Positions 844-6,927 of a DNA stretch of 7,560 nucleotides are shown piece after piece. A program made the position numbers and the translations under genes. Source of the DNA: Parachlamydiales bacterium (lineage in GTDB: Bacteria; Chlamydiota; Chlamydiia; Chlamydiales; SM23-39); the NCBI GenBank assembly GCA_050302075.1, contig JBNLAH010000011.1, forward strand, positions 1 to 7,560. Reading direction: 5' to 3'. Numbering within the stretch: the stretch's first letter is position 1; every line of letters begins with the position of its first letter. The notes beneath the pieces are model-generated. The model was not told the origin of the DNA, ran no database searches, and was given only the letters and a program-made list of their open reading frames with translations.

Positions 844-1344
844 TTAATCTTTCGGCGAAATACAAGGCAAACAATTGAGATAAAAAATTTCAGATTCCAG
901 AGTAAATGAAGGATATTCCTTTATGGTATAGGGAAGTTTAATGCGGGCAAGGGTCAAATGAGGACGATAATTTTCACCATAGTCATTTATAATGGAAAGA
1001 GATTTTGATTGGATTATAGATCTAACTTCTTCGTAAAGTTTGAATAGCTCTTTTTCAAAAGATGTTAACTCAGCCCAGTAGTATCCGTTATTGTCTATTG
1101 TTGATTTAACTAAGCTTAAAGAAGAAAAATGAATTGAAAAAGGGATTGGATATTTTTTTTTTATATTTTCTAATATGACAGAGGTCTCTTCTTCTTTGCA
1201 TTCAAATTGACATATAGTAACATGCGGAATGCCGCCATCCTTAAGAAGGTAACCATAATTTTGTTTAGAAAATAAACTTTGAGATACCTGAATGTATTTT
1301 TTTGCAGCTTCTTTAGATGGCTCTAAAATAATCATATAAGACAT
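844..1344 (-). CDS. 2H phosphoesterase (LigT/ThpR '2'-5' RNA ligase'-like superfamily)
   Basis: Two HxT motifs, PHVTI (HVT at 1216-1224) and PHLTL (HLT at 952-960), 88 aa apart in a 166-aa protein. ATG at 1344 is preferred over TTG at 1347 because GAGGA (1355-1351) lies 6 nt upstream. Confidence 0.88.
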   Translation of the reverse strand: MSYMIILEPSKEAAKKYIQVSQSLFSKQNYGYLLKDGGIPHVTICQFECKEEETSVILENIKKKYPIPFSIHFSSLSLVKSTIDNNGYYWAELTSFEKELFKLYEEVRSIIQSKSLSIINDYGENYRPHLTLARIKLPYTIKEYPSFTLESEIFYLNCLPCISPKD

Positions 1345-1350
1345 CAACTG

Positions 1351-1355
1351 TCCTC
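1351..1355 (-). promoter_or_regulatory. Shine-Dalgarno of the 2H gene, overlapping the DGC stop codon
   Basis: Minus strand reads TGAGGACAGTTGATG. TGA (1356-1354) is the DGC stop, GAGGA is the SD, and a 6-nt spacer precedes ATG. Confidence 0.7.
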
Positions 1356-2247
1356 ATTTTTTTGGACCCCAAAACTGTGTACAGTTTCTTCCAGCAGCCT
1401 TTGCGGCAATTAAGGCTTTGTCAGATCTTTCAATTGTTTCTTCTACAGGAGAGTATAGATCCAAAGGAACTAACCCAAAAGACACCGTTATTTTAATTGG
1501 CTCTGGTGTTTGAACAATATCAGTTTCAGATATTTTAGTGCGTATTTCTTCAATTTTTTTGAACGCGCTATCTGTTTCAGTATTGTTTAAACAAATAAGG
1601 AATTCTTCTCCACCATACCTAAAAATTTTGTCTCCAGCACCTAGGTTGTCTGCAATTAAATGGACTACAGCTGCTAATATACTATCCCCAACCAGATGAT
1701 TATGTTTATCATTAATCTGCTTAAAGTGATCAATATCCATCATCGTAATGAAGCTGCGTTTATGTTCTCTTTTTGCTGATTCTTGCTGCTCTCTTAAAAT
1801 TGTCAACATATTGACTCTGTTAATTGCCCCGGTTAGAGGATCTCGATTGTAAATAAGGTTTTCTAATTCTCTTTTTAAAGTAGTTGTCTCAAGGCGCATC
1901 CTTTCAAGAGAATTAGAAAAATTATCATAATCTGGAGGTGAAATTGAGCTGCCATTTTCAATTAAGTTCAATAGCTTTTTAGCAAGCTGGTGCATCCTTA
2001 TATGCTCTTCACCAATTGATTTAAATCCCGGATGTTCAATTAGTTTTGCAACCTTAGAAGAATAATACCATTGGCCAAATCTACACTCTTTATGTGGGGC
2101 TTCGCTTATGTCATGCTGGTCAGCTGGCAAATGGCAGATAAGTGTTCTTATTAGTGAACTAAACCAGACTTCGTGATTATGTAGAGACTGATCCAAATAA
2201 TTGATAATCATTTGGAGTTCTTCATGCTTCATTTCTTGGAATACCAT
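1354..2247 (-). CDS. dgcZ: CZB (chemoreceptor zinc-binding)-GGDEF diguanylate cyclase, DgcZ/YdeH-like
   Basis: N-terminal H25, C55 (CRFGQW), H82 and H86 match the spacing of the E. coli DgcZ zinc ligands H22/C52/H79/H83. The C-terminal domain has DPLTG..NR, DIDHFKQIND, H..GD, RYGGEEF (GGEEF at 1600-1614), TVSFG and AK..GRN. Length is 297 aa, similar to DgcZ. SD-like AAGGTG lies directly after the upstream stop. The symbol reflects architecture; orthology is not proven. Confidence 0.92.
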   Translation of the reverse strand: MVFQEMKHEELQMIINYLDQSLHNHEVWFSSLIRTLICHLPADQHDISEAPHKECRFGQWYYSSKVAKLIEHPGFKSIGEEHIRMHQLAKKLLNLIENGSSISPPDYDNFSNSLERMRLETTTLKRELENLIYNRDPLTGAINRVNMLTILREQQESAKREHKRSFITMMDIDHFKQINDKHNHLVGDSILAAVVHLIADNLGAGDKIFRYGGEEFLICLNNTETDSAFKKIEEIRTKISETDIVQTPEPIKITVSFGLVPLDLYSPVEETIERSDKALIAAKAAGRNCTQFWGPKK

Positions 2248-2260
2248 CTTAAAAACACCT

Positions 2261-3658
2261 TCACTTTTCTAAAACTGATCTTTTTCCCCTTGTATAAGTA
2301 TAACGATTTTTAGTAAAGAACCTAAAAAAGCCTAAAACTCGCCACCATACTGTAATCGGTCTGTAGGTGAAATTTTCAACTAAGGATAAAAAGACCATTT
2401 TTAGTAAGACTTTAGTAGATTGGTACTTTTTCAGAAAAACTTGCTGCATGATCAAAGAGGCAATTGTTAAAAACATGTCTACTCCCCAAGCAATTAAGAT
2501 AAAATACCACAAAAACGAAAGGTTCAAGACGCCAAAAAAATAGCAAAAAAGAATATAAATATATCCAAAGCTTTCTATTAATGGGCCAATCCCTTCTCCA
2601 AAAAAAAGGTAAGGAAAATGGATAAAGCCTACAATGCCATATTTGGGGTTGAATAGCATATTTCTGCGACGCCAGCAAACTTCAATAATAGAGCAGTGCC
2701 ATCTTTTCCTTTGTATAGCAAGAGAAGAGTATGTTTGCGGTACTTCAGTCCAAACTATTGAATCAAATACATAGTCGATCCGATATGGCTTTTTTTGATC
2801 CCGCATGCTTTTATGGATAGCTAAGGTTAAATCAAGATCACCAGCTAGGACCTGTTTAAATCCTCCAATATCTAGGATTGTCTGTTTATTAAAAAGGCCA
2901 AAGCCACCTGAAATTAAGGGAGTACCACCTAAATCATTCCAGCCTAACCTTCCAAAGAAAAAAGACTTTAGATACTCAATTACTTGCATGGATCCCAAAA
3001 ATGAGGGTGGGAGCCTTACTTCTTTCACCCGGCCTTTTTCTACAACACATCCATTAATGATAGTAAGTATTCCTCCCATAGCATGGATGTCTTTTTCTGT
3101 TAATAAGTGCTGAAAAAGCTTACTAACAGCATCTGGTTCAATAATTGAGTCTGCGTCAATATTGATAAAAAAGGGAGTAGTGCAGGCATTTATCCCAGCA
3201 TTGATGGAATCTTCTCTACCGCCATTTTCTTTATGTATTACCATCAAATTTGGATGAGATTTTGATTGATAATAGTGCTTAATAGGAGCTGTTTTTAAAG
3301 TTGGCCTAAAGATGGGCGGAATGGAAACTAGTTGGTAGGTGTCGATTAATACCTGAAGAGTTTTGTCTGAAGAATCATCATCAACAATAATTATCTTAGC
3401 ATTTGGAAAGTCTACATTTAAAGCAGCTGTTATTGGAGTTAGTATATTGGCTTCTTCATTAAAACAAGGAATAATAATTGAGACTGGAGGTGCAACATCC
3501 AACTTAAATAATTGGTATGATTTTTGCGCTCGTTGTTCTTTTAAGCGGCGAATTAGATTGGGGTTCGTTGCTATTAGAAGGACAATATAAAAGCTATTGA
3601 GCCATAAAAAATAAAATAAGATGAATAAATCAATCACAAAAATGATTTTTTCAGTCAT
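2261..3658 (-). CDS. Processive membrane GT2 glycosyltransferase (PgaC/IcaA/cellulose-synthase-like polysaccharide synthase)
   Basis: N-terminal TM helix, PCFNEE, VDDDSSD, KENGG, IDADS (DxD), QVIEY, LISGGFGLF, GD at the TED position, TEVP, QRKRW (QxxRW at 2699-2713), then several C-terminal TM helices. The start overlaps the HEAT gene stop (ATGACTGA, 3658-3651). Confidence 0.92.
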   Translation of the reverse strand: MTEKIIFVIDLFILFYFLWLNSFYIVLLIATNPNLIRRLKEQRAQKSYQLFKLDVAPPVSIIIPCFNEEANILTPITAALNVDFPNAKIIIVDDDSSDKTLQVLIDTYQLVSIPPIFRPTLKTAPIKHYYQSKSHPNLMVIHKENGGREDSINAGINACTTPFFINIDADSIIEPDAVSKLFQHLLTEKDIHAMGGILTIINGCVVEKGRVKEVRLPPSFLGSMQVIEYLKSFFFGRLGWNDLGGTPLISGGFGLFNKQTILDIGGFKQVLAGDLDLTLAIHKSMRDQKKPYRIDYVFDSIVWTEVPQTYSSLAIQRKRWHCSIIEVCWRRRNMLFNPKYGIVGFIHFPYLFFGEGIGPLIESFGYIYILFCYFFGVLNLSFLWYFILIAWGVDMFLTIASLIMQQVFLKKYQSTKVLLKMVFLSLVENFTYRPITVWWRVLGFFRFFTKNRYTYTRGKRSVLEK

Positions 3659-4694
3659 TAATATCCAATGTTAAAGCATATTGAGCAGCTTCGTAGGCAA
3701 ACTGATCTTTTTCAAAGCTTTGCTGCTTTAATACTTGAATGCCATCTTCTCCTAATCTTTTCAAGGCTAGTGCTGAGTTAATTCGTACCCACCAGCTTTT
3801 ATCTGTTAATAATAAAGAAAGGTCACCAAGAGCTTCTTTAGCTTTTAGATATCCAAGAGAACGAGCTGATACTGAACGAACCTCCCATTCGTTATCTTTT
3901 AGCAGAGGAATTAATAATGAGATGCTAATAGGATTCAAATAACGACCAATAGCACGTATAGCAGCAATCCGTAGGTTTTTATGTGATGAATAAAGATCTC
4001 TCTTGGCTAGCTCGACAATGTGAGGGTTCATGTTATGAGATAAAATCTCAAAGCAGCTTACTCTTGTCCAAGGATCTTTATCTTTTTCTAACCTTTCTTC
4101 TACGAAAGAGAATGATTTAGGGTTGCCTTTTAACAAAGACTCTCTAAAAGGAAATCTTAAGAATCTATTACAGTTCATCTCGTCAATAATAGCATTTACA
4201 GCTGTTGGAGTCCCAAGTTTTGCAGCACAAGCCGCTGCTGAATACTTAATAACGGGGATTGAGTCTTGCAAAAGATGAAGTATTTCTTTTTCATTGTTTA
4301 GATCTGGACAATGAAAAAAACAGCCAATAGCCTGAATTTTTTTTGTCCATCTCTTAGCATAAGTTAATTTTTTTGCTTTGGGAAAAAGAATATTAATAAA
4401 AAGGCTTTCTCTCATTTTTTTCCAATGAGCATCTTGATTTTCTTTGTCTGTATTTATTATCAATGGGATAAGAAACGATATTTTGCGAAATCTGATTGGA
4501 AATAAATTTATTGGCAAAGATCTTTTTTTTTCGATCAACTCTCGAATTTTATCTCTAAATTCAATTAATACTTTTCTCTTCTTTCGAGAAAGGTAAGAAG
4601 AAATAGGCTTTAGAATAAGAGAAAAAAAGACATGAATTACAATAAAGATAAATTGAAAAACAGTAATTAACTTAATAAATTTTAGATAAGACAA
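3651..4694 (-). CDS. HEAT-repeat protein with N-terminal membrane anchor
   Basis: Hydrophobic LITVFQFIFIVIHVFFSLIL followed by basic RKKRK. Repeated HEAT/PBS-lyase-like units: LLQDSIPVIKYSAAACAAKLG, DKDPWTRVSCFEIL, HKNLRIAAIRAIG, LLKDNEWEVRSVSARSLGYL, LLTDKSWWVRINSALALKRLG. TTG start with GGCAGG 6 nt upstream; an in-frame TAA at 4715-4713 bounds the frame. Confidence 0.9.
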   Translation of the reverse strand: MSYLKFIKLITVFQFIFIVIHVFFSLILKPISSYLSRKKRKVLIEFRDKIRELIEKKRSLPINLFPIRFRKISFLIPLIINTDKENQDAHWKKMRESLFINILFPKAKKLTYAKRWTKKIQAIGCFFHCPDLNNEKEILHLLQDSIPVIKYSAAACAAKLGTPTAVNAIIDEMNCNRFLRFPFRESLLKGNPKSFSFVEERLEKDKDPWTRVSCFEILSHNMNPHIVELAKRDLYSSHKNLRIAAIRAIGRYLNPISISLLIPLLKDNEWEVRSVSARSLGYLKAKEALGDLSLLLTDKSWWVRINSALALKRLGEDGIQVLKQQSFEKDQFAYEAAQYALTLDIND

Positions 4695-4711
4695 ATGATG
4701 CCTGCCAATGT

Positions 4712-4717
4712 ATTATA
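4712..4717 (-). promoter_or_regulatory. Candidate sigma70-type -10 box for the HEAT-GT2-DGC-2H unit
   Basis: Perfect TATAAT on the minus strand, 17 nt upstream of the TTG start. Only a weak -35 (TTAAAG, 4739-4734, 16-nt spacer). The AT-rich background lowers significance. Confidence 0.35.
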
Positions 4718-4804
4718 TATAGATTGTTTTGCTCTTTAATGTACTAGTTTATTTAAATAGTTAAACTAACTAAAAATGGCAAGCTTTTGTCAAATTTGTA
4801 AATT

Positions 4805-6091
4805 TTATTTAAGGCAATTTTGATCACAAATTTTTAAGATATATTCTCCTATTTCATGATTTGCCAGTTTATCAGGAAAAACCGGCTGATTGCAAAAAAG
4901 AGTTCCTCTTTGAATGTGCTTTCCTGTTCTTTTGACAATAGCTTTAAAAAAATCAAAAAAGCGATATTGCTTATTTGATATTGTAAGATATGCATCTGAA
5001 TCAACTGGATCTGTGAACTGAATCTTATAAAAAAGCTTAAGTGGATTATTTGGATAAGATTCTATATGAAAAAAAGGAGAGCCTTGAACAGTTATGCTTT
5101 GCAAAATCTCAGCGGATTGCTTCGCTAGCTGAATAGATGGAAAAAAAAGATGGGCATCATGAGTCATATGAGCATCAATTTTTACATCATGGATACCCGC
5201 AGCTTCTAAGAATTTTTTCTGATCGATTTGTCGATATAATACCCAAGGTTTTTCATCATTTGTATTTTTTTGAGACAGAGCATTAGTTATAACTAGCAGA
5301 TCGTCTTTATCTAATTGATTGAAAATTTTTCCTAAAATTTTATCCATCTTCTTAAATCCATGTTTTAGCCCTGGGGAAATTTTATCCAAGTTGTGCCATT
5401 GGTGATGCTGCAAGTGCGCTATGGAATTTAGAAAAAGTAAAGAAAAAGTAGGTTTGTGTCTCATTTGATACTTAAGAAAGAAATGAGATGAGACATAATC
5501 TAAAAATGAGATGAAAACAAAAGGTTTAAAACGATGTAAAAAAGAATTTTTCATAAGAAACAGTATCTCTTTTGAAAGAAAGCCTATTGAATTGTTTTTT
5601 TTCGCAATTTTTAGAAGGTCTTTAATTGAGCTGACTAAAACTCGTTTTGAAAATCTAGTATAGTGCTTAGATACGTAGCGGAGCGGTTGTAATATATAGT
5701 TTAGTTCTTCCGGGTAGGCATTTTCAGCAGTTGTCCAAGGGTCTGGAAAGAAAAATCGGCAGTTTGATGCTTTTGATCGCTTTGAATTCATAGCACCCCA
5801 AATACCACTTGAAATTTCCCTGTCTGAAAGTTTTTCCCAAAGTTGTTGGTGATCAGTCCTAGGAGAGTCACCTAGGTGTTTCACTTGGTGCTCAGAAGAA
5901 GAAAGCCCTGTATGTACATTTACCCACTGCACCCAAGGTTCCAAAAAACCACTATCATAAGTATCATCTGTCCATGTTTGACTTTTATGAAAAGTGAGTA
6001 ATTTTTGAATGTTTTTTAAAGGGAGGCTGTTTACAGCTTTTTGCAATAGATCTTCATTAAATTCATTGAGTTCGAGTAATAAAATTTTCAT
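4805..6091 (-). CDS. Alkaline phosphatase/nucleotide pyrophosphatase superfamily-like protein with non-canonical active-site motifs
   Basis: Motif order ILLLELNE ... EPWVQWVNVHTG ... LWEKLS..ISSGIWG ... LFLNSIAHLQHHQW ... MDKILGKIFNQL..DDLLVITNALSQ parallels the AP/NPP core (IDG ... TxPxWxSxxTG ... DxxGH ... D..LG.L....LVVTSDHG). ATG at 6091 (428 aa, ATGA overlap with the upstream stop) is preferred to the track's TTG at 6109. No signal peptide. Confidence 0.65.
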   Translation of the reverse strand: MKILLLELNEFNEDLLQKAVNSLPLKNIQKLLTFHKSQTWTDDTYDSGFLEPWVQWVNVHTGLSSSEHQVKHLGDSPRTDHQQLWEKLSDREISSGIWGAMNSKRSKASNCRFFFPDPWTTAENAYPEELNYILQPLRYVSKHYTRFSKRVLVSSIKDLLKIAKKNNSIGFLSKEILFLMKNSFLHRFKPFVFISFLDYVSSHFFLKYQMRHKPTFSLLFLNSIAHLQHHQWHNLDKISPGLKHGFKKMDKILGKIFNQLDKDDLLVITNALSQKNTNDEKPWVLYRQIDQKKFLEAAGIHDVKIDAHMTHDAHLFFPSIQLAKQSAEILQSITVQGSPFFHIESYPNNPLKLFYKIQFTDPVDSDAYLTISNKQYRFFDFFKAIVKRTGKHIQRGTLFCNQPVFPDKLANHEIGEYILKICDQNCLK

Positions 6092-6783
6092 ATACGTTTT
6101 GATCTCCAATAGTTAAAAAAAACATGCAAAATTAAGGCTGAATCTTTTATTGCTGAAAAATGTGACGAGCTATTTTTTTTATGATAGATAGTTTTAATTG
6201 GGCATTCTTCAATTTTTAAGTTATCTCTTAAAGCTAACAGTAAACATCGAAATTCCAATTCATATCGATCTCCGTAAATTTCTTTTTCAAATTTTTGAAC
6301 GACTGTTTTATTGAAGGCTCTGTATCCAGATTGAGTATCAATAGGGGCCTTAGGAAAAAGTCTATGTAAAAGAAATGAGATAATTAGGTTTGGAAGCCGC
6401 CTTATAAAAGGTGCATGTTTGAAGTTTCTACTTCCAATTACAAAGTCAGCTCCTTTAGCAACACAGGTTGCTATTGCTGGAATTTCAGATGGTAGATGTT
6501 GCCCATCTGAATCTATTGTGAGCAATGTGTCAAAAGAAATATGATTTAAAGCATATTGAAATCCTTTAAGTAAGGCTACACCTTTACCTTTGTTCTCAGA
6601 AAAAGTTATTAAATGTACTTTTTCTTTATCTTTAGATTGAAATTCCTGGAGGATTTTAGGGGTTTGATCTGTTGATCCATCGTCTATAAGAATCAAAGAT
6701 GTACATTGAGGTAAGATTTGCTCGATTACTGGTCTGCAATATTTTTCTACATTATAGCAGGGGACAACAATGCTAAGTCTCAA
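6088..6783 (-). CDS. GT2 glycosyltransferase, DPM1-like (polyprenol-phosphate glycosyltransferase type)
   Basis: SIVVPCYN, IDDGSTD, NKGKG, DSDGQH, VIGSR, DTQSGYR, RYELE and SHF motifs. TTG at 6783 is preferred because GGAG (6793-6790) lies 6 nt upstream, giving MRLSIVVPCYN. The track's start at 6795 has no evident SD. Confidence 0.9.
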   Translation of the reverse strand: MRLSIVVPCYNVEKYCRPVIEQILPQCTSLILIDDGSTDQTPKILQEFQSKDKEKVHLITFSENKGKGVALLKGFQYALNHISFDTLLTIDSDGQHLPSEIPAIATCVAKGADFVIGSRNFKHAPFIRRLPNLIISFLLHRLFPKAPIDTQSGYRAFNKTVVQKFEKEIYGDRYELEFRCLLLALRDNLKIEECPIKTIYHKKNSSSHFSAIKDSALILHVFFNYWRSKRI

Positions 6784-6927
6784 AGTTAACTCCAAAAGGG
6801 GAATAACTTTTTGTTTTATATAAAAAAAATATTTTTGTCAGCCTCTTTGTAAATTGAAATATTGAAAAAGAGATAATAATGGAAATTACTAGAGAATTTA
6901 ATTATTAAATTTTGATAAAAATTGATT

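Follow-up and report, generated by a model that had tools for sequence, protein, structure and literature searches.

Genomes that carry diguanylate cyclases but neither EAL nor HD-GYP proteins are a recurring puzzle; to our knowledge, only these two domains are established as erasers of c-di-GMP. The window analysed here, a stretch of 7,560 nucleotides from a chlamydial genome, poses the question in a compact form. A gene for a 2H phosphoesterase directly follows that of a DgcZ-like cyclase, and we asked whether its product could be the missing eraser.

The 2H (LigT/CPDase-like) gene occupies positions 844-1344 (-) and encodes 166 aa from the ATG at 1344, with a stop codon at 846-844; use of an alternative TTG start would place the reading frame at 844-1347 (-). 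Both catalytic HxT motifs, PHVT (residues 41-43, with H41 and T43) and PHLT (residues 129-131, with H129 and T131), are intact as first claimed, and are invariant in a family alignment of 9 sequences. In an alignment of 85 sequences, H41, P128 and H129 are invariant. The Pfam profile LigT_PEase (PF02834) scores 27.5 bits, over a gathering cut-off of 23.3, and PF13563 scores 22.9 bits, below its cut-off of 27; no match to EAL (PF00563) or to HD or HD_5 (PF01966/PF13487) was found on the protein by Pfam profile search. With two HxT motifs, a 2H fold (see below) and PF02834 above its cut-off, the protein belongs to the 2H phosphoesterase superfamily. The ratio dN/dS, 0.10-0.20 in three pairs versus 0.07-0.08 for the cyclase, indicates that the gene is under purifying selection.

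At the junction between the two genes, the minus strand reads ...AAAAAATGAGGACAGTTGATG.... The stop codon of the cyclase (TGA, 1356-1354) shares its GA with GAGGA (1355-1351), a Shine-Dalgarno-like sequence of the 2H gene read directly at 1351-1355 (-), which is followed by a 6-nt spacer and the ATG at 1344-1342. The overlap of ribosome binding site and cyclase stop described in the original prediction was thus confirmed. The intergenic gap is 9 nt in the window. No promoter-like site was seen between the two genes, nor any terminator-like site within 600-2400. The data support a real, intact 2H gene that is coupled to the cyclase.

The cyclase itself (1354-2247 (-), 297 aa) was identified by profile matches to CZB (41.2 bits) and GGDEF (120.5 bits) that exceed the respective cut-offs, and its GGEEF motif is intact. 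On the DgcZ model NF007380 it scores 253.7 bits, just below the cut-off of 256. The CZB ligand positions H25, C55, H82 and H86 and the GGEEF motif are invariant in 7 cyclase orthologues, all 7 of which lack the RxxD I-site for product inhibition. Upstream lies a membrane GT2 glycosyltransferase of the PgaC/IcaA/NodC type (2261-3658 (-), 465 aa, profile matches), for which PgaC/IcaA is the best model and which is presumably the polymer synthase of the cassette. Its start is overlapped by 8 nt by a gene for a HEAT-repeat protein (3651-4694 (-), 347 aa), the first of a conserved four-gene core. Further upstream are an alkaline-phosphatase-superfamily protein (4805-6109 (-), 434 aa), whose Pfam Phosphodiest match is marginal (23.4 versus 23.0 bits) and which gave nothing meaningful in a single-sequence PDB search, and a second GT2 glycosyltransferase resembling polyprenyl-phosphate sugar transferases (6088-6795 (-), 235 aa). 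The alkaline-phosphatase-like gene precedes the core in the window, L002, L003 and L006, and was not found within 6 kb in L004.

In E. coli, the zinc-inhibited cyclase DgcZ controls synthesis of poly-GlcNAc by PgaCD. The chlamydial locus resembles that system in pairing a CZB-GGDEF cyclase with an adjacent PgaC/IcaA-type GT2, but it has no PgaD, PgaA or PgaB, a HEAT protein and, in relatives, a TPR protein standing in their place. It differs further in a cyclase without I-site, in a genome without any PilZ match, and in the 2H gene appended at the end.

The core order HEAT, PgaC-like GT2, cyclase, 2H, with 2H as last gene, is shared by all 7 distinct lineages found (the window, L032, L033, L002=L034, L003, L004=L035=L036 and L006=L038), which correspond to 5 species genomes of one chlamydial family and 2 metagenome contigs. 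The cyclase-to-2H gaps across these lineages are 9, 9, 9, 16, 16, 7 and -4 nt, and the genes beyond 2H differ in every one. A search of all 103 genomes in the family found a DgcZ-like cyclase in 5, belonging to 4 of 53 genera, and in all 5 the 2H gene is directly downstream. Within these 103 genomes the cassette is patchy but never without 2H. Six of the seven cassette 2H proteins form one clade in the tree (support 94/84), with the seventh adjacent, so that the cassette 2H probably had a single origin and was recruited once. Since the cassette lineages all belong to one family, their shared gene order counts for roughly a single evolutionary event. Twenty strong-GGDEF loci elsewhere in the phylum showed no HEAT, GT2 or 2H matches, and we rejected the idea that other chlamydial cyclases share the cassette; their identity to the window cyclase is 26-39%, in the GGDEF domain only. 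PADLOC gave no match for either 2H or cyclase.

Is a known eraser encoded elsewhere? The original prediction held that the window has no EAL or HD-GYP gene, and a scan of 8 window ORFs likewise returned neither. The wider check that it called for gave the same answer, the profile search of the window's own genome (1.84 Mb, 96.2% complete) returning EAL 0 and HD_5 0. The window cyclase is the only GGDEF match in this genome. Its only two HD-domain proteins are a PgpH-like 7TMR-HD protein, which could be an alternative eraser, and an HD+HD_assoc_2 protein. A DHH/DHHA1 enzyme of NrnA/GdpP size was not found, the one DHH frame being RecJ-sized (582 aa). EAL or HD-GYP (Pfam HD_5) matches were found in 0 of the 5 cassette genomes, which have 1-3 GGDEF matches each, including in two of them a strong PAS-GGDEF (read in G001).

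This was compared with a sample of 301 Chlamydiota genomes, a GGDEF being taken as strong, or catalytic-looking, when matched with E<1e-30. Such domains were found in 31 genomes, and 27 of these also encode HD-GYP or EAL. HD_5 is present in 26 of the 31, which include all 26 HD_5 genomes, and one more (G206) carries its eraser domain as a GGDEF-EAL fusion. The strong-GGDEF genomes without EAL or HD_5 are G000 and G280, both with the cyclase-2H pair, and G155 and G222, which have cyclases and neither a known phosphodiesterase nor 2H; these last two establish that cyclase genomes without phosphodiesterase exist. Weak GGDEF matches lacked GG[DE]EF in 5 of 5 cases inspected. On this ground we rejected the idea that they are cyclases devoid of a phosphodiesterase; they do not blur the strong-GGDEF count. 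In other cyclase modules of patchy occurrence in this phylum, the eraser is encoded next to the cyclase: G080 has an HD-GYP gene immediately upstream of it, and in G206 a GGDEF gene adjoins one for GGDEF-EAL.

The fold of the 2H protein was then compared with known structures. The AF2 model is confident (pLDDT 93.4, pTM 0.88), and a Foldseek search of the PDB gave 26 matches at E<=0.001, including Usb1, LigT, AKAP18, YjcG, VP3, ns2, CPDases and Acb1. The matches to these proteins all fall within E 5e-5 to 3e-3; as judged from the model, fold searches do not tell 2H substrates apart. Viral structure library matches were mixed 'RNA ligase/CPD/Acb1' entries, the ESM Atlas returned only generic '2'-5' RNA ligase' clusters, and a single-sequence PDB search gave nothing meaningful. 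Structural alignment over residues 1-166 reached Z 14.8, the nearest folds being the CPDases 5h7e (Z 14.8) and 1jh6 (Z 14.7) and LigT (Z 13.5), with Acb1 behind by about 2.5 Z at most (Z 12.2). The comparison with Acb1, ThpR and YjcG proposed at the outset thus had a divided outcome: all of them match, and the protein is slightly nearer to CPDases and LigT than to Acb1.

The CPDases of D. radiodurans (5h7e) and Arabidopsis (Appr>p, 1jh6/1fsi) and E. coli LigT/ThpR (5ldm) have the same fold over the whole protein (147-155 residues aligned), and share the two HxT motifs, a length of about 170-180 aa and the lack of a metal site. Unlike them, with only 14-16% identity, the 2H protein has conserved features of its own (Q46, W90-x-E92, N120 and YRPHLTLARI). 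We know of none of these three enzymes in a cyclase operon. The sequence profile search hit a single solved structure, that of YjcG from B. subtilis (2d4g; E 2.1e-5, mainly over the N-terminal half), a 2H protein without assigned function whose structural Z is 11.6. The phage Acb1 (7t26/7t27, Z 12.2 and 11.4, Foldseek E 4.5e-4) and the penguinpox cGAMP phosphodiesterase (9bkq; Z 10.1 for 9ciw) also have the 2H fold in common, and they demonstrate that 2H chemistry is able to cut 3'-5' cyclic dinucleotides. No sequence-level match to Acb1 was found in profile and single-sequence PDB searches. Both are viral counter-defence proteins and, unlike the cassette 2H, not operon partners of a cyclase. 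According to a review passage (PMC10419184), Acb1 depends on an adenine contact (E141-N6); the substrates listed there are cGAMP, cUA, cAAA and cAAG, c-di-GMP not being among them.

Our preferred reading, a tentative one that may well prove wrong, is that the cassette 2H turns over c-di-GMP or GpG and is the candidate eraser of its module. A presumably cytoplasmic, catalytically intact 2H protein would have been recruited to the end of a c-di-GMP module and be co-transcribed with its other genes. The zinc-sensing CZB-GGDEF cyclase would make c-di-GMP, which presumably switches on the adjacent pair of PgaC-like synthase and HEAT protein, and we infer that 2H would erase it. If it works like the 2H enzymes that cleave 3'-5' cyclic dinucleotides, one of its catalytic histidines would activate the ribose 2'-OH for attack on the adjacent 3'-5' phosphodiester. 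This would open c-di-GMP into linear GpG ending in a 2',3'-cyclic phosphate, and hydrolysis of that end could follow at the same site; or else the role of 2H may be to clear a linear product. With EAL and HD-GYP enzymes, 2H would have in common the proposed eraser role and the place beside a cyclase (as in G080 and G206); its fold is unrelated to theirs. EAL and HD-GYP phosphodiesterases are metal-dependent and their product is 5'-pGpG, in contrast to the 2',3'-cyclic or 2'/3'-phosphate end expected for 2H. The further thought in the original prediction, that independence of metals would make such an eraser fit for a zinc-sensing circuit, is speculation. The original prediction had proposed turnover of c-di-GMP or pGpG. 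What speaks for it is the conserved coupling to the cyclase (7 of 7), the lack of EAL or HD_5 matches in the cassette genomes and the phylum pattern; what weakens it is that relatives are coupled to HAD or kinase genes, often without GGDEF, that active-site residues are unchanged, and that the fold leans slightly towards CPDases and LigT. The stronger claim is unlikely, namely that the cassette 2H is a third, metal-independent and c-di-GMP-specific phosphodiesterase class, derived from a cyclic-phosphate-healing enzyme, which acts by 2'-OH transesterification to give the 2',3'-cyclic phosphate of GpG and replaces HD-GYP in one chlamydial lineage. No report of a 2H enzyme cutting c-di-GMP was found in the accessible parts of the literature searched (2H/LigT/Acb1 with c-di-GMP; third phosphodiesterase class).

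The main rival is a serious one, and quite possibly correct: 2H may be a conventional 2',3'-cyclic phosphodiesterase whose substrates are RNA ends or 2',3'-cNMP and not c-di-GMP, a single housekeeping enzyme placed by chance, in one clade, at the end of the cyclase operon and inherited along with it. The family, found mainly in Chlamydiota and also in Caedibacter varicaedens (L013), lends it weight. Among 100 related loci, GGDEF is nearby in 10, all of the cassette clade. The expectation that close homologues adjoin GGDEF genes therefore held inside one clade, probably of single origin, and failed for the next relatives. The sister and cousin 2H genes immediately follow a gene for a HAD_2 phosphatase in 6 distinct lineages and one for a Zeta-toxin/AAA_33-type P-loop kinase in 5, and others lie beside His_Phos_1/DUF2608; NUDIX is also among the family's partners, and 2H-kinase, HAD-2H and 2H-DUF6829 fusion proteins occur. 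Such partnering with HAD and kinase proteins, together with the fusions, is the pattern of cyclic-phosphate end-healing. Full-length members are present in 18 sampled genomes, and strong GGDEF is absent from 15 of them; in one of the other 3, HD-GYP is present and 2H lies 176 kb away. A HAD-coupled genome (G005/G264) has no GGDEF. Six genomes checked have one family member each, so the cassette copy could be the housekeeping 2H of its genome. Cassette and non-cassette groups are identical in the conserved core (PHxT, Q46, W90, E92, N120 and YRPHLTLARI). The closest folds and the closest solved sequence, YjcG, also agree with an ordinary enzyme. On the side of the eraser reading are changes specific to the cassette proteins: away from the catalytic motifs, H104, conserved in the family, has become Y and P71 I/V, and a short 'PCxP' end replaces the conserved 'LGxxDxxGQ' C-terminal tail. 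The rival also leaves unexplained why the gap between cyclase and 2H stays within -4 to 16 nt in all 7 lineages of a patchy cassette whose downstream genes vary, why the HAD and DUF6829 partners of the sister clade have no homologue in the window's own genome, and why cyclase-bearing cassette genomes are without HD-GYP or EAL when 27 of 31 have one. In addition, the ThpR equivalog model TIGR02258 gives only 32.3 bits against a cut-off of 65.7, aligning residues 91-140 only.

A role in polysaccharide metabolism is improbable. Here 2H would act on a sugar cyclic phosphate or phosphodiester that arises in making or decorating the polymer of the GT2, HEAT and alkaline-phosphatase-like genes. A comparable reaction is that of plant and yeast CPDases with ADP-ribose 1'',2''-cyclic phosphate, and the Arabidopsis Appr>p enzyme is among the best structural matches (rmsd 2.5 Å). 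The cluster holds two GT2 enzymes and an alkaline-phosphatase-superfamily protein, and two relatives lie near a phosphodiester glycosidase (NAGPA, L009) and a polysaccharide deacetylase (L015). Yet 2H is coupled to the cyclase and not to the transferases, no relative is consistently linked to glycosyltransferases, and no 2H accompanies C4, the paralogous GT2+TPR cluster of the window's own genome, which adjoins HisKA and REC genes. That 2H acts against host or foreign nucleotide signals (2-5A or cGAMP-type messengers of a protist host), as viral 2H phosphodiesterases do, is hardly credible: viral 2',5'-phosphodiesterases and Acb1 are among the structural matches and the family reaches Caedibacter, but no link to secretion or defence genes was seen at the loci examined, PADLOC was silent, and the coupling to cyclase and synthase would stay unexplained.

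We thus return to 2H as candidate eraser of c-di-GMP. No published work on c-di-GMP signalling in Chlamydiota was found in the accessible parts of the literature searched. In genomes with a cyclase and neither EAL nor HD-GYP, the locus joins to that cyclase a predicted phosphodiesterase of a third fold, whereas elsewhere in the phylum cyclases are nearly always accompanied by HD-GYP or EAL. Should 2H prove to cut c-di-GMP, it would represent a new class of enzyme whose product differs in ending with a 2',3'-cyclic or 2'/3'-phosphate. This would affect both the annotation and the measurement of c-di-GMP turnover, and 2H would clearly exemplify how an enzyme that heals RNA ends can be drawn into signalling. 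Otherwise, the locus would still be a compact, self-contained c-di-GMP module in Chlamydiota.

The window is the complete 7,560-bp contig C11 of a 1.84-Mb genome (33% GC, 89 contigs, estimated 96.2% complete) assigned to the Chlamydiota, whose relatives are Chlamydiae MAGs. Every substantial ORF lies on the minus strand. In transcription order, they encode an LRR protein truncated by the contig end (6955-7560), a GT2 transferase (6088-6795), an alkaline-phosphatase-superfamily protein (4805-6109; Pfam Phosphodiest, 23.4 vs 23.0 bits), the cassette proper, made of a HEAT-repeat protein (3651-4694), a PgaC/IcaA/NodC-like membrane GT2 (2261-3658), a CZB-GGDEF cyclase (1354-2247) and the 2H phosphoesterase (844-1344), and finally an ORF of 244 aa (1-732) to which no Pfam model matched. 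The LRR protein has near-identical 23-residue repeats and runs off the contig, and similar arrays occur at the Parachlamydiaceae locus L020. The 244-aa ORF belongs to a large paralogous family of the same genome, with 17 further matching stretches by tblastn (contigs C1, C2, C3, C4, C7, C9 and C21, 25-66% identity); as the contig ends inside it, this ORF probably breaks the assembly.

The 2H ORF, which carries PHVT and PHLT, scored above the gathering threshold of LigT_PEase (27.5 vs 23.3) and below the cut-off of the ThpR equivalog model (32.3 vs 65.7). The cyclase-2H junction, read on the coding strand, is AAAAAATGAGGACAGTTGATG: GAGGA shares bases with the stop codon of the cyclase, and 6 nt further on comes the 2H ATG. 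The original prediction, which described two intact catalytic motifs and a Shine-Dalgarno sequence overlapping the cyclase stop, was borne out. No promoter-like site was found between cyclase and 2H, and no terminator-like site in 600-2400.

An AF2 model of the 2H protein was built on an 85-sequence alignment (pLDDT 93.4, pTM 0.88). Foldseek returned 26 PDB matches at E<=0.001, those listed including Usb1, archaeal "2'-5' ligase-like" proteins, AKAP18, LigT, YjcG, rotavirus VP3, MHV ns2, CPDases and Acb1. Upon VIA re-alignment, the D. radiodurans CPDase came first with Z 14.8. The Arabidopsis Appr>p CPDase followed at Z 14.7, with an rmsd of 2.5 A, and E. coli LigT came third at Z 13.5. The Acb1, ThpR and YjcG comparisons proposed at the outset all gave fold matches, but Acb1 (Z 12.2), like AKAP18 (12.4) and Usb1 (12.2), ranked behind CPDases and LigT. 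B. subtilis YjcG was the sole solved relative by sequence profile (E 2e-5). We concluded from these results that the ORF encodes a true 2H enzyme, outside all characterised subfamilies. The modelled fold tilts slightly to cyclic phosphodiesterases and does not settle the substrate.

A word-indexed search with 2H yielded 9 proteins only, and a profile search over 1.84 billion representatives yielded 699 relatives at E<=1e-3 (315 at E<=1e-10). We assembled 100 loci, 30 from species genomes and 70 from metagenomes, all of which were searched with the window proteins and the relatives' neighbours, the neighbours being scanned against Pfam. Three contexts recurred. The predicted association with GGDEF genes held for the first, HEAT-GT2-cyclase-2H with the cyclase directly upstream, found at 10 loci (7 distinct lineages), but not for the others, where a HAD_2 phosphatase or a P-loop kinase takes this place. 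The cyclase context comprises, with identities in brackets and an equals sign joining loci of one lineage, the window, L032 (87%), L033 (79%), L002=L034 (47%), L003 (49%), L004=L035=L036 (39%) and L006=L038 (34%); cyclase-to-2H gaps are 9, 9, 9, 16, 16, 7 and -4 nt in the window, L032, L033, L002, L003, L004 and L006, respectively. Downstream of 2H, each lineage differs (TPR_30 protein, CT021-family protein, opposite-strand M42 peptidase, unknowns). Upstream, a divergent TPR gene of about 620 aa precedes HEAT, after the alkaline-phosphatase-like gene, in three relatives (L002:523-2409, L003:701-2566, L006:674-2521); it is absent there in the window, where a mere 110-bp spacer (4694-4805) is found.

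The HAD_2 gene directly upstream of 2H, often preceded by DUF6829, was found at L005, L037, L007, L008, L041 and L043=L044, and the Zeta-toxin/AAA_33-type kinase at L039, L040, L045, L046=L047 and L049. Rarer neighbours were His_Phos_1/DUF2608 (L012, one case), DUF2608 (L048, one case) and a nearby NUDIX gene (L007, L010). The longer proteins of the family turned out to be fused: 2H-kinase (P0034, P0035), HAD-2H (P0045) and 2H-DUF6829 (P0023). From the logic that kinase/CPD and kinase/phosphatase enzymes follow in end-healing, we infer that the HAD_2 and kinase contexts are those expected for a cyclic-phosphate-opening enzyme partnered with a phosphatase or kinase; PMC7824862 has a passage on 2H enzymes relevant here. 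The string methyltransferase/DUF6829/HAD_2/2H is conserved in other Chlamydiota (L007:134-3886, L037:2582-5735, L091), and DUF6829, which is fused to 2H in P0023, may be a working partner of the ancestral enzyme.

A maximum-likelihood tree was built from the 2H proteins of 31 loci. All cyclase-coupled sequences but one (6 of 7) formed a single clade (94/84), with L006 beside it; nothing in the starred branches requires a second origin. Opposite the cyclase-coupled group, the HAD-coupled pair L005/L037 branches basally in the clade that holds every other relative. The cassette clade shares all residues of the conserved core with the other 23 sequences (P40-H41-x-T43, Q46, W90, E92, N120, Y126-R-P-H-L-T-L-A-R-I135). 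Changes in the cassette proteins are the replacement of the family-conserved H104 by Y (6 of 7), of P71 by I/V in the clade, a different residue at G159, and a short "PCxP" end in place of the "LGxxDxxGQ..." tail. At a dN/dS of 0.10-0.20 (cyclase 0.07-0.08, GT2 0.04-0.07), 2H is the fastest-evolving cassette gene, yet one clearly maintained.

The absence of EAL and HD-GYP genes, noted originally for the window, extends to the whole genome: genome-wide searches found no EAL, no HD_5 (the Pfam match taken for HD-GYP) and no PilZ. The only GGDEF protein is the window's cyclase; the RxxD product-inhibition site is missing from this cyclase in all 7 orthologues. Neither a second 2H family member nor homologues of the HAD or DUF6829 partners were found in this genome. 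One RecJ-sized DHH frame is present, together with two HD proteins, a dGTPase-like HD+HD_assoc_2 protein and a PgpH-like 7TMR-HDED/7TM-7TMR_HD/HD protein (G000:C1:132500-134260, L123). The latter has the architecture of PgpH-type c-di-AMP phosphodiesterases, and may serve this genome as another eraser of cyclic dinucleotides. A GT2 paralogue with 39.5% identity to the synthase of the cassette adjoins a 652-aa TPR protein (G000:C4:228000-236000, L125); this pair, next to HisKA and receiver-domain genes rather than a cyclase and without 2H, resembles a further polymer synthase, here governed by a two-component system. In the genomes of L002, L003, L004 and L006, the cassette copy is the sole 2H family member; each has 1-3 GGDEF matches, and neither EAL nor HD_5. 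The second strong GGDEF match of genome G001 is a solitary PAS-GGDEF. The genome of HAD-coupled L005 lacks GGDEF and has a single 2H family member.

All 103 genomes (53 genera) of the window's family were searched. A DgcZ-like cyclase was present in 5 (4 genera), with 2H directly downstream each time; five further genomes had a non-cassette 2H member, one of them (G356) sharing its genus with cassette genome G280. Of the Chlamydiota genomes sampled, 300 or 301 were scored, G010 being missing from two of the searches; the 2H family occurred in 22 of 300 (18 full-length, 4 fragments), GGDEF in 87 of 301, EAL in 3 of 301 and HD_5 in 26 of 300. GGDEF E-values split into two groups, with a gap from 5e-35 to 2e-22. 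The weak matches were ruled out as cyclases, since all 5 inspected were degenerate (KKGKF, GNGRF, NHGKF, GGGRF, EPGRT, vs GGEEF in the window). A protein of about 300-320 aa with such a degenerate GGDEF-like domain (GNGRF, GGGRF or KKGKF, for example; L128-L132, in G058, G137, G066, G244 and G201) is widespread in several chlamydial families and may be a receptor or structural relic.

Strong matches were found in 31 genomes, including all 26 with HD_5, which span at least 9 families. In G206 a GGDEF-EAL fusion adjoins another GGDEF. Several short contigs of G080 (C83:1450-2842, L106; also C95 and C104) have an HD-GYP gene immediately preceding that of a 287-aa cyclase. Both genes are otherwise rare in that family (GGDEF 2/32, HD_5 1/32), and the arrangement resembles a writer-eraser pair that is mobile or repeated. 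By this count across related genomes, which is not a statistical test, a strong GGDEF without canonical eraser was left in four genomes: G000 and G280, both with the cassette, G155, and G222 (REC-GGDEF; genome 91% complete). G155, without EAL, HD_5 or 2H matches, has two tandem cNMP-binding-GGDEF genes followed by HAD_2 (L103, G155:C141:954-3706), 28-32% identical to the HAD partners of 2H; HAD_2 is linked to cyclases as well as to 2H genes. Among the 18 genomes carrying a full-length 2H gene, a strong GGDEF match is confined to three, G000, G280 and G257, the last with 176 kb between the two genes and an HD-GYP. Other chlamydial cyclases (20 loci) were rejected as orthologues of the cassette cyclase, being 26-39% identical within the GGDEF domain only, and none had HEAT, GT2 or 2H nearby.

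We tentatively rank first the possibility that the cassette 2H acts on c-di-GMP or its linear GpG products. That it is an ordinary cyclic phosphodiesterase, a mere bystander of the cyclase, is a near-equal and quite conceivable rival: the family overall acts like a cyclic-phosphate enzyme unrelated to c-di-GMP, and the active site is unaltered in the cassette clade. However, the bond to the cyclase is tighter and more durable than chance neighbourhood explains, 2H is never missing from an otherwise patchy cassette, and the cassette clade has lost the family's usual partners. Moreover, cassette genomes are the main exception to an otherwise tight rule of the phylum, by which HD-GYP or EAL accompanies an active-looking cyclase and in some cases adjoins it, and the cyclase has no RxxD site; for these reasons c-di-GMP turnover was put first. 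A polysaccharide-linked role is improbable. The gene order, coming from one family and probably from a single origin, counts as roughly one event.

By the 2H chemistry described for Acb1 in passages of PMC10419184, the enzyme would cut by 2'-OH transesterification to a 2',3'-cyclic phosphate, which it would then hydrolyse. Acb1 activity depends, in these passages, on an adenine contact, so that guanine specificity in the cassette 2H would be new. No report of a 2H enzyme hydrolysing c-di-GMP was found in the literature searched. The fold and the kind of chemistry are already known; what is new is a conserved genomic role for 2H. If an enzyme assay were positive, 2H would constitute a new enzyme class for c-di-GMP turnover.
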